Source of the DNA: Bacteroidales bacterium
GTDB lineage: Bacteria; Bacteroidota; Bacteroidia; Bacteroidales; UBA932
Assembly (NCBI GenBank): GCA_028686425.1
Contig: JAQUBZ010000001.1
Coordinates: forward strand, 50,536-114,535
Reading direction: 5' to 3'
DNA length: 64,000 bases
The notes under the pieces were generated by a model. That model had not been told where the DNA came from. It did no database searches and worked only from the letters and a program-made list of their open reading frames with translations. Numbering within the stretch: position 1 is the stretch's first letter; each line of letters opens with the position of its first letter. This document shows positions 12,650 to 18,886 of the stretch, in pieces. A program made the translations under genes and the position numbers.

Positions 12650-14314
12650 TTACCAATATTTTACCTGAAGAATTATTGGCAAGTGGTCACTGACACCACC
12701 GTTATACCGAGGACCGATATGAGTACGAAAAGGCTTGAACCCGAGATATGTCTTATCTTTTTCAGTAATGTATTCATTTTTGTAAATATCCATGTTGCAA
12801 TACGGCCTCATATTTTCAGAGACTAAAAATTGATCGATCAGCTCCCAGATGCCTCTGTACCTGATGGAACCTTCTCCATTTTCAGCTATTTCGACCGCAA
12901 GATTATTAAGGGGGACATTTTGCAGGGCTTCTCCGTCCGGGGTATCATTAAAGTCCCCCATCACGATTATCCCTTGACGAGAAGCAGGTATTGTCTGATA
13001 ATCAGCCACTTTGCCAAAAATATGATTGTCAGAACAAATGATCCGATCTGCCTTAGCAATAGAATCGATTTTCATTTTCAGAGTATTTGATGCAGACATC
13101 CTTTTGCCTGATGAAGCTTCTGTCCCGCTTATTTTTGAAGGCCAATGATTTACGAAGATGTGCAGTGTGTCCCCCGATTGCATGAAGTGTGTAGCTCCTG
13201 TTTCAGGATGGCTTTGCGATTTGTGAGAATGACTTTGCGACTGGTGAGGATTATTTTCAGAGATGGATAATGTGTCCGAAGTGGAATATTTTTCAGAGGT
13301 GGAAGGCGAGCCCGTAGAAGTGAGTTGGTCAGAGGCTGAAGGCGAGCCCGTAGAAGTGAGTTTGCCGGAGACTGGAAGTGTGCCCGTAGAAGTGAGTTGG
13401 TCAGAGGCTGAAGGCGAGCCCGTAGAAGTGAGTTTGCCGGAGACTGGAAGTGTGCCCGTAGAAGTGAGTTTGCCGGAGACTGATAGTGTGCCGTCTGGAG
13501 ACAGAAGTATTCCTTTCACGTATAGAATATCACGAGTAGTTGTCTCCGGGATTGTCACAGGTATGGCCTCTACTGTCAGCACTCTGAATCGGTCTTTTCT
13601 ATATAGCATGGCCACATCTATGCCTCGTTTGTCCGGGCTGTCGCGGTGCACAATCGAATAATTGAGCCTGTACAAAGGCGTTTCCTTCAATAGTTGATTG
13701 AGAACAAATCTGTTTTCGACCTCGGCAAATCCGATAATTATCGGGAAATCACCATATTGCTGTGATATTGAAATAATTGTCTTGGCAATGCTGTTACGTT
13801 TACGAATAAACTTTTTCCAACTCCAATGATATTTGCCGCCATAAGAGAAGTCCTCATCATCAGTGAGTTCGTCATTGAAAGGATCAAAATAATTCTCAAG
13901 ATTCCAAAACATCATCGTAGCCTTTGTGCCGGATTTCTCCTCATGGCTTTCCTCTTTGCTGCTTTCCACCCCGTGGCTTTCAAGGGTCTGATTGCCACAG
14001 GGTGAAATCGATGAAGTCGTTAGCTTCAGCGATGATGCCTCCGGCGTGTGTCTGTGCGGGATTGGATTTTTGCAGGTGTCCACCCCGTGGCTTTCGAGGG
14101 TCTGATTGCCACAGGGTGAAGTCGCTGGCTTCAGCGATGATGTCTCCGGCGTGTGTCTGCGCGGGATTGGATTTTTGCTGCTGTCCACCCCGTGGCTTTC
14201 GAGGGTCTGATTGCCACAGGGTGAAGTCGCTGGAGACGATGGAGACATGTATATCTGAATATTTGTCGAAAGCAGCCATACAAATGCTACAAAGATTATA
14301 TATAGATTTTTCAT
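12650..14314 (-). CDS. endonuclease/exonuclease/phosphatase (EEP) family protein with repeat-derived insertions
   Basis: EEP motifs (MFWNLENYFDPF, FAEVEN, IFVNHWPSK, MGDFND, GGVSDHLPI). The signal-peptide-like start MKNLYIIFVAFVWLL is at 14314. An alternative start, MMFWNL, is at 13915. Confidence 0.75.
   Translation of the reverse strand: MKNLYIIFVAFVWLLSTNIQIYMSPSSPATSPCGNQTLESHGVDSSKNPIPRRHTPETSSLKPATSPCGNQTLESHGVDTCKNPIPHRHTPEASSLKLTTSSISPCGNQTLESHGVESSKEESHEEKSGTKATMMFWNLENYFDPFNDELTDDEDFSYGGKYHWSWKKFIRKRNSIAKTIISISQQYGDFPIIIGFAEVENRFVLNQLLKETPLYRLNYSIVHRDSPDKRGIDVAMLYRKDRFRVLTVEAIPVTIPETTTRDILYVKGILLSPDGTLSVSGKLTSTGTLPVSGKLTSTGSPSASDQLTSTGTLPVSGKLTSTGSPSASDQLTSTGSPSTSEKYSTSDTLSISENNPHQSQSHSHKSQSHPETGATHFMQSGDTLHIFVNHWPSKISGTEASSGKRMSASNTLKMKIDSIAKADRIICSDNHIFGKVADYQTIPASRQGIIVMGDFNDTPDGEALQNVPLNNLAVEIAENGEGSIRYRGIWELIDQFLVSENMRPYCNMDIYKNEYITEKDKTYLGFKPFRTHIGPRYNGGVSDHLPIILQVKYW
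13293..13490 (+). repeat. 36-bp tandem repeat array (two alternating unit types, about 5.5 units) inside the EEP gene
   Basis: Units start at 13311, 13347, 13383, 13419 and 13455. Each begins CCCGTAGAAGTGAGTT. They are in frame (12 aa each). Confidence 0.9.
13966..14224 (+). repeat. three tandem REP-like units (hairpins at 13966-14005, 14080-14119, 14185-14224)
   Basis: Each unit is CCACCCCGTGGCTTTC(A/G)AGGGTCTGATTGCCACAGGGTGA plus the conserved spacer ..CCTCCGGCGTGTGTCTG(T/C)GCGGGATTGGATTTTTGC... Unit lengths are 114 and 105 nt. Confidence 0.9.
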
Positions 14315-15549: not shown

Positions 15550-15623
15550 GCTATCGTAACAGGAGCGACGAAGCCATCATCAGAATATCATTATCACGGC
15601 TATCGTAACAGGAGCGACGAAGC
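15550..15623 (+). repeat. perfect 25-bp direct repeat (GCTATCGTAACAGGAGCGACGAAGC) spaced 49 bp apart, spanning the SNF transporter stop codon
   Basis: Copies at 15550-15574 (just beyond the stop) and 15599-15623 (within the last codons of the gene). Confidence 0.95.
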
Positions 15624-16938
15624 GTATTATAAAGAAGACCGTTTCAAGCAGCCATTGCGGAATCTTGAGCGTTCCGTGGTTGGTCAATTCGTCAAAGGCA
15701 GCCGTTTTGCCAAGTCTCCATCCTACAAAAATCACTATCAGCAATCCCCCTATCGGCATCAGGACATTGGAGGAAACATAGTCAAACAAATCAAAAATAT
15801 TCATTCCGAATAGTTTGACACCGCTCATTGCCCCTTGAGACAACGAACAGAAACATCCGAGCAAAAGAATTATTCCAAAAGCAATGGCCACAGCCCCGCC
15901 TCTTTTCATCTTAAACTCTTCAATCAGGTAAGAGACAAACACTTCAAGCAGTGAAATGGATGATGTCAGAGCGGCAAGCAGCAATGTTACAAAAAACAGT
16001 ATTGCGATTACACCTCCAAGCGGTAGAGAGGCAAAGATTCTCGGTAAAGTTATAAATACAAGGCCAGGACCTTCTCCCGGACTGATTCCAAAAGCAAATA
16101 CCGCCGGCATAATTGCACATCCTGCAATGATTGCAAAAAGAGTGTCCGCAATAGACGTATAGGCCGAACACTTCATTATATTTTCATCCTTGCTCACATA
16201 CGAGCCATAAGTCATTATCGTGCCACATCCCAATGAAAGCGAAAAAAATGCCTGTCCGAGCGCAGCGAGAAAAGTTCCGGATGTAACTTTCGAAAAATCA
16301 GGCTTGAACATATACGATACCCCTGCTCCGGCGCCCTCAAGTGTCAGAGAGCGTATAGCAATTATAATCACCATTACAAACAACATCGGCATCATCATTT
16401 TGGTATATTTTTCTATACCTTTCTTGATTCCTGCCAGCACCACAAATGCAGTAAGAGCCATAAAAGCAAGGTGATACAACAAAGGTTTGACGGGTGACGA
16501 GACAAAATCGCTGAACATTGTCGCATGATTGGCTTCACTTCCCGCCCTCGTAAAATCGAACAAAACCGCTTTTACCAGATATTCTATCGACCATCCTCCC
16601 ACAACACTGTAAAACGACAATATGCAGATGGATGCCAGCACTCCGAAAATTCCGATTATCCCCCATTTTGAGCCGGGAGCGAGAACGCGAAATGCCCCGA
16701 ACACATTGGACTGGCTCCTCCTTCCGAGGATAAATTCTGAAAACATAATCGGAAGGCACAGCACGAAAACAAATACAAGGTAAATAATGATAAATGCCGC
16801 CCCTCCGTTTTCCCCCATCAAATATGGGAACCTCCATAAATTGCCAAGCCCTATCGCCGAACCGGCCATGGCCACAAGTACTCCGAACCTGCTGCCGAAA
16901 TTGTCGCGTGAAGAGACTTCTATGTTGTTAGTTTTCAT
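15580..16938 (-). CDS. sodium-dependent transporter (neurotransmitter:sodium symporter/SNF family)
   Basis: 452 aa, multi-TM, with the NSS signature GLGNLWRFPYL near the N-terminus. The ATG start overlaps the folA 3' end by 11 nt. Confidence 0.9.
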   Translation of the reverse strand: MKTNNIEVSSRDNFGSRFGVLVAMAGSAIGLGNLWRFPYLMGENGGAAFIIIYLVFVFVLCLPIMFSEFILGRRSQSNVFGAFRVLAPGSKWGIIGIFGVLASICILSFYSVVGGWSIEYLVKAVLFDFTRAGSEANHATMFSDFVSSPVKPLLYHLAFMALTAFVVLAGIKKGIEKYTKMMMPMLFVMVIIIAIRSLTLEGAGAGVSYMFKPDFSKVTSGTFLAALGQAFFSLSLGCGTIMTYGSYVSKDENIMKCSAYTSIADTLFAIIAGCAIMPAVFAFGISPGEGPGLVFITLPRIFASLPLGGVIAILFFVTLLLAALTSSISLLEVFVSYLIEEFKMKRGGAVAIAFGIILLLGCFCSLSQGAMSGVKLFGMNIFDLFDYVSSNVLMPIGGLLIVIFVGWRLGKTAAFDELTNHGTLKIPQWLLETVFFIIRFVAPVTIAVIMIF

Positions 16939-17761
16939 TGGTTAAGTATTGTATGAACTGAAAATCGAAATTGGTCTTTGTGTCGTGAAACACTTCACTT
17001 TCCCAGATTATCCTCCATTTTGAGGAGTCTATCTTTGGAAAATATGTATCTGCGTCATCTATTATAGTCTTGACGGAGGTTATGTAGAGACGATACGCTC
17101 CGGGCATGGTCTGCCGGTAAATTTCACCGCCGCCGATGACAAAGATTTCGTCACGGGAAGCCATTTTCAGGGCCTCTTCAATAGAAGGAGCAACCATTGT
17201 GACCGTAGCAGCTGCTCCGGCAGCAGCGCCGACAGCAGCCCCACCCCCAACACTTCCCCCGACACAAACAGCAACATCCCCGGCAGCAGCGCCGACAGCA
17301 TCCACGGACCCCCGGACAACACTCCCGGCAACAACCCCGACAGCAGCCCCACCCCCGACACTTCCACCGACACAAACAGCAACATCCCCGGCAGCAGCGC
17401 CAACAGCAGCCACGGACCCCCGGACAACACTCCCGGCAACATCCTCGACAGCAGCCCCGACAGCAGCCCCGCCCCCGACACTTCCCCCGACACTTCCACT
17501 GGCCACGACATCACTCCCAACTGCAGCAAAGGCAGCCTTCTCCACGGTCAGGCTGCGGCTGACAATAATATTTTCACGAAGTGGTAAAGGCTTGCAACCC
17601 AACGACTCCCATGTGTGCCGCCCCATAATGACAGTTCCATTTTTAGTAAGCTTCTTAAAATATTTCAGGTCCGCAGAAATATGCCAAGGCATCCGGTTCC
17701 CACGACCGATCGCCATATTTTCAGAAGTGGCAACTATCAATGAATATCTCTTGCTTGTCAT
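16928..17761 (-). CDS. folA: dihydrofolate reductase with a ~115-aa Gly/Ala/Val-rich repeat insertion
   Basis: DHFR motifs ([47 protein letters not shown]). The ATG at 17759-17761 overlaps the thyA stop (ATGA), suggesting translational coupling. Confidence 0.85.
17233..17500 (+). repeat. 108-bp GC-rich tandem repeat (about 2.5 units) inside folA
   Basis: CAGCAGCCCC(A/G)CCCCC... recurs at 17233, 17341 and 17449. The period is 108 bp (36 codons). It is C-rich on the + strand and has no stops in several frames. Confidence 0.9.
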
Positions 17762-18552
17762 ACGGCAATGGGGGCCTTTATTCCCGGCCACGGGTTATAA
17801 TTTGTTAGCGTAAAATCCTCATATTCAAATGAATATATGTCTTTTTTATCCAGATTGATCGTCATTTGCGGAAGAGACCTCACTTCTCTCGAAAGTTGTG
17901 TTTCCACCTGCTGAAAATGGTTCAGATAGATGTGTGCATCTCCCAGAGTATGAACGAAATCGCCCAACTCATATCCACACACCTGTGCAATCATTTGTGT
18001 AAGAAGAGCATACGAGGCAATATTGAACGGCACTCCTAAAAATACATCGGCACTTCTCTGATAGAGCTGGCAGGAGAGGCGTCCGTCCGCAACATAAAAC
18101 TGAAACAGGCAGTGGCACGGAGGAAGGGCCATGGAATCGATTTCTGCCACATTCCAAGCGGAAATGATGTGTCTGCGCGAATCGGGATTGCGTTTGAGTT
18201 GATCAATAAGATTGGTCAGCTGATCTATTGTACCTCCGTCCGGCGCAGGCCAGCTTCTCCATTGATGTCCATAGACCGGACCAAGCTCTCCTCCGGCATC
18301 AGCCCACTCGTCCCAGATGGTCACTCCGTGATCATTGAGATATTTAATATTGGTACTCCCGGAAATAAACCACAGCAATTCGTAAATAATTGACTTCAAA
18401 TGGACTTTCTTGGTGGTCAGAAGCGGAAACCCTTCGTTGAGATTAAAACGCATCTGATAGCCGAAAATGCTCTTTGTTCCGACTCCCGTGCGGTCACTCT
18501 TGACCACACCATTATCCATTATATGTTGAAGAAGATCTAAATATTGTTTCAT
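17758..18552 (-). CDS. thyA: thymidylate synthase
   Basis: 264 aa. [15 protein letters not shown], the active site ALPPCH, and a canonical ThyA length. Confidence 0.97.
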
Positions 18553-18679: not shown

Positions 18680-18760
18680 CCTCCGGCGTGTGTCTGCGCG
18701 GGATTGTATTTTTGCTGCTGTCCACCCCGTGGCTTTCGGAGGCTTGATTGCCACGGGGTG
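18680..18760 (+). repeat. single REP-like unit (spacer plus a perfect 11-bp-stem hairpin)
   Basis: CCTCCGGCGTGTGTCTGCGCGGGATTGTATTTTTGCTGCTG followed by CACCCCGTGGC-N16-GCCACGGGGTG, between thyA and the ATPase gene. Confidence 0.85.
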
Positions 18761-18886
18761 TAATCGATGGCTTCTGCGATGATGGCCACGGCGTGGAATC
18801 GTGGGCTTCGGACCGCAAATTGTCATGAAATGCAATTGACGGCAATATTATTTTTGCCAAACTGTTGCAAGAGTTTATAATATTCG

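Follow-up and report, generated by a model that had tools for sequence, protein, structure and literature searches.

A 108-bp coding minisatellite in the sole-copy folA of an uncultured Bacteroidales bacterium

Can a dihydrofolate reductase (DHFR) whose coding sequence is interrupted by a long, GC-rich tandem repeat still be an enzyme, and how might such a repeat have come to lie there? The question was raised by the folA gene of a Bacteroidales bacterium, which lies in the window analysed here (the whole stretch of 64,000 nucleotides). An earlier note on this DNA, made from its letters and open reading frames, had described the repeat and called its occurrence in folA remarkable. The gene, its repeat, the predicted protein, the rest of the genome and related sequences in other assemblies were therefore inspected.

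The folA gene and its repeat

It was found that folA occupies positions 16928-17761 of the minus strand, encoding 277 aa plus a stop from an ATG at 17761, and that its product matched the Pfam family DHFR_1. In the list of open reading frames (ORFs) the gene was contained in a minus-strand frame of 287 aa with a GTG start (16928-17791); the ATG at 17761 was taken as the start because it agreed with the N-termini of homologues. On the upstream side lies thyA (thymidylate synthase, 264 aa; ORF at 17758-18552, minus strand; PF00303 recorded on orthologous genes). Its stop codon and the folA ATG share positions 17758-17761, as expected from the ATGA overlap reported earlier. On the downstream side, an ORF encoding an SNF-family transporter (15580-16938, minus strand; PF00209 recorded on orthologous genes) overlaps the 3' end of folA by 11 nt. 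The three genes follow one another on the minus strand as thyA, folA and the transporter gene, each overlapping the next.

The insert comprises 111 aa (residues 76-186; 17204-17536, minus strand), as delimited by its composition, by the confidence of structure prediction (pLDDT) and by homologues that lack it. Its presence had been recognized in the earlier note, but the size given there, ~115 aa, was corrected to 111 aa. It begins with AAF after a left flank ending in SLTVEK, and it finishes with AAAT. Ala (29%), Gly (26%), Val (25%) and Ser (9%) together make up 89% of its residues, and G occupies the first codon position in 86% of its codons.

By Tandem Repeats Finder, a 108-bp tandem array of 2.2 copies was located at 17217-17458 on the minus strand (93% matches, score 421). 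The 108-bp period was as described before, but the earlier count of ~2.5 units was too high. A repeat search placed the two full units at 17217-17324 and 17325-17432 (minus strand), which were 94% identical; 6 of the 108 positions differed, 2 of them non-synonymous and 4 synonymous. These six differences (A/T, C/A, T/C, T/G, C/T and G/C) showed no adenine-specific pattern of the kind expected from DGR-type targeted mutagenesis. The same program also detected a perfect 12-bp subrepeat of 2.2 copies at 17472-17497 and degenerate 12-bp arrays at 17209-17239, 17310-17350 and 17386-17471, all on the minus strand. The folA repeat is thus a coding minisatellite by its arrangement, with head-to-tail units and periods of 108 bp and 12 bp, both of which are multiples of three.

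The GC content of the insert was about 0.67 (up to 0.675), compared with ~0.43 in its flanks, and the plus strand showed a strong excess of C; the composition scan thereby agreed with the C-rich plus strand and elevated GC noted previously. Among 44,269 windows of 200 nt across the 2.2-Mb genome (mean 0.416, sd 0.05), the insert was the most GC-rich.

The insert was free of stop codons in two of the three frames on each strand, which gave rise to three overlapping spurious ORFs, and the frame scan bore out what had been said of them. One is an antisense ORF of 225 aa, rich in Pro, Thr and Ala, at 17136-17813 on the plus strand, lying wholly within folA and thyA on the opposite strand; the others cross the insert at 17167-17529 and 17178-17375 on the minus strand. 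A gene or domain on the antisense ORF or in the insert peptide was rejected, with 0 Pfam families matched.

Predicted fold, sole copy and related enzymes

Against PF00186 (DHFR_1, cut-off 25 bits) the 277-aa product scored 169.1 bits, and the match fell into two halves, residues 7-79 aligning to profile positions 3-76 and residues ~189-273 to positions 73-157. The N-terminal part (residues 1-75; 17537-17761, minus strand; positions 3-65 of DHFRs in the PDB) contains the Met20-loop region, the catalytic Asp31 (Asp27 in E. coli), alphaB, betaB, alphaC and betaC. The C-terminal part (residues 187-277; 16931-17203, minus strand; positions 75-158 of DHFRs in the PDB) contains betaD, alphaE, the GGG motif, alphaF and betaF-H. 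In the structure alignment, residues 7-70 were aligned to 3-65 of Geobacillus DHFR (1zdr) and to 3-64 of E. coli DHFR, and residues 190-272 to 75-158 of 1zdr, indicating that the insert stands in place of the short loop between betaC and betaD (the CD loop; residues ~64-72 in E. coli). From the fold nomenclature of E. coli DHFR, we take this loop to be part of the adenosine-binding subdomain. Homologues differ in length at exactly this point, so that the assignment to a variable surface loop made in the earlier note was upheld.

The equivalents of E. coli W22, D27, F31, R57, G95-G96, Y100 and T113 formed invariant columns in an alignment of 23 sequences; these residues, together with M20, are catalytic and ligand-binding positions of the E. 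coli enzyme. Their counterparts M24, W26, D31, F35, R62, G210-G211, Y215 and T228 are all present in the 277-aa protein, and with the DHFR_1 score this showed that the recognizable DHFR blocks had been retained, as claimed earlier.

A model was obtained with AlphaFold2 from the 23-sequence alignment. The pLDDT was 82-96 over most of both halves (85-96 for the core; mostly 82-92 in the N-terminal part and 86-96 in the C-terminal part) and below 50 for insert residues 80-182. By Foldseek, the model matched E. coli, Klebsiella and B. subtilis DHFR with an E value of 2e-14 and target-normalized TM scores of 0.85-0.88. A confident DHFR core around the insert is consistent with the earlier suggestion that the enzyme may still fold. 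According to the model, the product would keep its DHFR core intact and carry a disordered excursion, the 111-residue loop, which is predicted to emerge from the adenosine-binding subdomain and to point away from the active site; it is most likely that the 277-aa protein retains enzyme activity. A left-handed beta-helix of the hexapeptide type was considered for the 36-aa unit and rejected, as Val recurs at a spacing of 4 rather than 6 (judged by eye) and AlphaFold gave no confident structure. An intein or other self-removing insert was likewise rejected: the insert peptide begins with AAF and ends with AAAT, and it showed 0 Pfam matches, no Rfam match and no significant fold.

To what extent the organism depends on this gene was examined in the genome assembly (2.22 Mb, 51 contigs, 92% complete). 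The earlier note had named a second folA or a thyX bypass as grounds for refutation, and both were looked for genome-wide. In this 92%-complete genome folA was the only match to DHFR_1, and neither ThyX nor an RibD_C-type reductase (PF01872) was found, the control searches being positive in 5 named genomes and in 14 of 14 genomes, respectively. ThyA produces dihydrofolate, and thyA is intact here, so DHFR activity is presumably required. We accordingly expect the organism to need DHFR activity, FolM-type short-chain reductases being beyond the reach of such family searches. In a 2.2-Mb organism without RibD_C, riboflavin synthesis would be either missing or encoded on the missing 8% of the genome.

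Inserts at the CD loop were also observed in other DHFRs. A folA from the same genus (L011) carries ~45 aa rich in Q, S, E and P at the same loop, and two further same-genus sequences (L008 and L013) likewise carry inserts. Among metagenomic DHFRs, CD-loop inserts were seen in P0052 (245 aa, ~85 extra), P0061, P0039, P0019 and P0003. Taken over same-genus and other DHFRs, these inserts comprise 15-85 aa and are unrelated in sequence. They resemble the folA insert in being placed at the same point, between betaC (NIIVSR) and betaD/alphaE (VxSLEEA), and in being low-complexity and probably disordered around an intact DHFR core; they differ from it in being rich in Q, S, E, P and T or of mixed composition, and in being shorter than 111 aa. 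Among the best 150 cluster representatives, the 111-aa insert was the longest, and within-species copy-number variation was seen for the folA insert only.

Several further observations were made on these sequences. In the P0052 insert, reiterations resembling VTVAGVPGG and VTVVGVPKE could be discerned by eye. P0035 (594 aa) matches DHFR in four stretches and may be a fusion or a tandem DHFR. In the clade P0020-P0034 (171-198 aa), an insert rich in Ala, Gln, Glu and Val (…AAEEVQVNAADAQEIQAAAAQ…) lies in another loop, just before FIIGG, and the members differ by blocks of 8-17 residues. One same-genus folA (L010, G003:C24:116777-117276) looks disrupted: its open frame stops after 125 aa, and its C-terminal half can be matched only if three in-frame TGA codons are allowed or a different frame is used.

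Could the loop be functional at the protein level, as a Gly/Ala/Val stretch rich in GxxxG that serves self-association, contact with a membrane or partner, or an entropic spacer, its copy number tuning the activity, stability or inhibitor sensitivity of DHFR? The insert is more hydrophobic than is usual for a passenger loop, with Kyte-Doolittle means over 19 residues of up to 1.89, and contains 14 GxxxG motifs, which leaves room for a function or for a cost. In a shorter allele, described below, ~35 insert residues of the same composition were retained in all six samples, and CD-loop inserts recur across related DHFRs. However, the inserts of relatives such as L011, L008 and L013 are unrelated to that of folA in sequence and composition, suggesting tolerance rather than a conserved function. 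AlphaFold gave the insert no structure and no family matched it, and the 2 non-synonymous and 4 synonymous changes between its units are too few to reveal constraint. A function of this kind was therefore judged unlikely. Very unlikely in our estimation is the specific proposal that the loop is a tunable module, in which self-association, membrane contact or aggregation alters the abundance, localization or inhibitor sensitivity of DHFR. If it were true, 108-bp slippage would act as a heritable, reversible dial on a core enzyme, and the locus would be a graded, in-frame contingency locus in a housekeeping gene. The insert is probably a near-neutral passenger sequence.

Alleles in other assemblies

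The evidence on alleles came from independent assemblies, and the exact copy number is accordingly that read from assemblies only. A protein of 201 aa (P0001) was found to be encoded on contigs L025-L030, which come from six different samples (ENA, one; Logan, five). This allele was identical in all six samples, and its protein flanks were the same as those of the window folA. Over 1.8-6.6 kb, the DNA of the six contigs showed 99.1-99.8% identity with the window, indicating that they belong to the same species. Alleles with 2.2 and 0.2 copies of the 108-bp unit thus coexist in one species.

The 277-aa and 201-aa alleles differ by 76 aa. In the DNA alignment with L025-L030, 228 nt (12 + 2 x 108) were absent from the shorter allele, at 17228-17455 on the minus strand, a placement that is ambiguous within the repeat. 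Relative to the short allele, the window folA therefore has one additional GGGGCTGCTGTC (12 nt) and 216 nt, exactly two 108-bp units. The unit-number variation that the earlier note had proposed to seek across isolates was in this way recovered from assemblies, with six samples carrying the allele shortened by 2 x 108 + 12 nt. The deletion joins the first unit to the partial third one at equivalent points, where both read TGCCGG. A shared stretch of only 6 nt excludes k-mer collapse as the origin of the junction. Moreover, ~60 nt of the 108-bp unit have no counterpart in the short allele. As these could not be rebuilt from it, the short allele would be the derivative of a two-unit deletion, and we infer that it descended from a unit-bearing ancestor.

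In a second MAG (GCA_028708885.1), folA was split between two contig ends, with the break within the repeat. The contig with the C-terminal piece (L032) matched the window at 100% identity across 2432 nt, a stretch that takes in 1.6 units. On the other contig (L031), T-to-G and A-to-G differences from the window were observed at ~2320-2382, the end of JAQVXY010000016.1, which lies in the folA repeat. L031 looks error-rich at this end, and the partial protein on deposit, MDD4670702.1, is perhaps no genuine allele. The corresponding 'third allele' of this MAG (P0005) was not counted, its contig tail carrying G-biased, error-like mismatches. A single contig from the JGI metagenomes (Ga0172377) was also 100% identical to the window and ends at 17493, inside the repeat. 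Ga0172377 is a sample id named in a study of a municipal landfill (PMC9723747). Protein searches for additional alleles returned none beyond those of 277 aa and 201 aa.

The complete 277-aa product, with the full 2.2 copies, was recorded from one contig of one assembly only, which raises the question of whether the long allele is an artefact, with a wrong number or order of units arising from short-read assembly of a repeat or from a strain mixture, or else a decaying gene, with a non-functional 277-aa form in a strain that salvages thymidine or folate. The breaks of other assemblies within the repeat would fit such an account, as would the G-biased differences in the L031 tail, which resemble sequencing errors, and the lack of RibD_C in the genome, a hint of auxotrophies. 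Against an artefact, the units differ at 6 positions, which allows long k-mers or read pairs to tell them apart, and 1.6 units were base-for-base identical in an independent MAG; the junction of the short allele is not one that k-mer collapse can create, so that the length variation is real either way. The intact frame, the full set of invariant residues and the intact thyA speak against decay. We regard an artefactual or decaying long allele as distinctly improbable. Since long alleles tend to break contigs, they are under-sampled, and counts of assemblies do not reflect allele frequencies.

Origin and meaning of the repeat

The genome contained no other copies of the 108-bp unit, and its 12-mers were essentially limited to the folA spot. 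In 40 relatives no match to the insert was found, all matches being confined to residues 1-77 and 182-277; the nearest DHFRs, with 72% identity over the N-terminal half, comprise 161-162 aa and have no insert. A dispersed or foreign element was rejected on these grounds, and we conclude that the insert is a local, species-level expansion. Two other candidates were dismissed. A REP or hairpin repeat of the neighbouring RAYT-like system was not supported, as only one 11-nt palindrome and no dispersed copies were found and the fold z was -1.38. An RNA element or intron was not supported either, with 0 Rfam matches, an RNA fold z of -1.38 relative to shuffled sequences and no hairpin.

It may be proposed that copies of a 12-bp unit, GGG GCT GCT GTC (Gly-Ala-Ala-Val), accumulated and drifted apart within the betaC-betaD loop at the protein surface. 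Nine of these units, a block of 108 bp, would later have been repeated in tandem as a whole, giving a repeat of higher order. The length of the loop would change by slipped-strand mispairing or by unequal recombination among the units; since both periods are multiples of three, such changes would leave the frame intact. We hold with reasonable confidence that the repeat is a coding minisatellite of the slippage or unequal-recombination type in a tolerant surface loop, the enzyme being functional and the insert a nearly neutral passenger.

The folA repeat does not stand alone in this genome. There were 113 tandem-repeat loci, 110 of them with a period of at least 9, and in 73 of these 110 the period was a multiple of three (binomial p = 1.5e-12 vs one third). 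In-frame arrays were found at the N-terminus of an S4/pseudouridine synthase (RluB-like; 10 x 17 aa, RPRRPYTRRSDSDSQSE; G000:C33:50230-50744), in the C-tail of TatC (6 x 13 aa, GC-rich units; G000:C8:3380-3625), in the linker that joins the two ABC domains in an ABC-F ATPase (6 x 8 aa, ATSASAVA; G000:C8:2163-2307), in CinA (2.4 x 15 aa; G000:C14:7534-7641) and in an RlmI-like methyltransferase (3 x 8 aa; G000:C24:2211-2281). In the window itself, 3-4 kb from folA, an EEP-family (Exo_endo_phos_3) gene has two in-frame arrays (13293-13492 and 14012-14233) with periods of 36/72/108 bp and 105 bp. The folA repeat is read as one case of a broader tendency in this lineage to low-complexity, in-frame repeats in conserved proteins. 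The earlier description as remarkable is toned down by the other in-frame repeats of the genome and by the loop inserts of relatives.

Two further observations concern repeats outside folA. The 105-bp units of the EEP-family gene resembled, by BLAST, a region at ~18681-18795 upstream of thyA. A dispersed tandem unit of 127-129 bp (…CTGACCCCATCAGCC…CTTCCCTCAGGGAAGC…) with a palindromic core was present on at least 4 contigs at 97-100% identity (G000:C37:331-706; C28:36305-36595; C26:26811-27082; C6:11830-12083); it is probably an element that is mobile or of the REP type.

A role of the repeat at the level of nucleic acid, in which its strongly G-rich sense strand (a possible G-quadruplex in DNA or mRNA) slows transcription or translation in the thyA-folA-transporter operon and the copy number determines how strongly folA and the gene downstream of it are expressed, was judged highly improbable: the repeat holds one of the two G>=4-tract quadruplex-type motifs genome-wide (loops <=12) and 2 of the 30 with G>=3, but 0 motifs with canonical loops of <=7, its RNA fold was no better than shuffles (z = -1.38) with 0 Rfam matches, and the short allele lacks most of the G-tracts in six samples, which implies that they are dispensable.

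The folA insert, read as a passenger minisatellite, may be compared with known systems. In the literature searched, nothing relevant was found on repeat inserts in the CD loop of bacterial DHFRs. The closest known analogue is the GGDN repeat polymorphism in the DHFR-TS of Plasmodium vivax, with three units in type A and two in type B, for which no clear association with antifolate resistance was reported (PMC4580362). Common to both are in-frame, Gly-rich repeats in the DHFR domain whose unit number varies within a species; the P. vivax repeat is tolerated by the enzyme, and the same is predicted for the folA insert. The P. vivax units are 6 aa long and present in 2-3 copies, one unit (residues 98-103) being deleted, whereas the folA repeat is hierarchical, with 36-aa (108-bp) units of 4-aa subunits, a total of 111 aa and alleles 76 aa apart. 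Moreover, the P. vivax enzyme is a eukaryotic bifunctional DHFR-TS, and the folA product here is bacterial and monofunctional. The Plasmodium DHFR insert probably lies in a different loop, nearer the N-terminal part.

With bacterial intragenic VNTRs and contingency loci the repeat shares head-to-tail units, gain and loss of whole units of the slippage type and length polymorphism among strains. In classic contingency loci, short units frame-shift genes on and off, mostly genes for surface or restriction-modification functions. In contrast, the frame of the folA repeat is always kept and its host is a sole-copy core metabolic enzyme. A phase-variable contingency locus was rejected, since each allele keeps the reading frame and all periods, like all length differences observed, are divisible by three. 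The results support the view of the folA insert as an intragenic, in-frame VNTR that is predicted to form a disordered loop; the gene that it occupies and its length make it notable.

DHFR serves as a textbook example in work on enzyme dynamics, folding and drug resistance. Here, nature provides an allelic series in which the loop of one core is lengthened by 35 or 111 residues, next to relatives with no such addition. Such a series offers a test of how much disorder the adenosine-binding subdomain tolerates and of whether loop length affects catalysis, stability or antifolate binding. Loci of this kind break short-read assemblies, and MAG catalogues therefore contain too few of them. Among uncultured Bacteroidales, coding minisatellites extend to sole-copy core genes.
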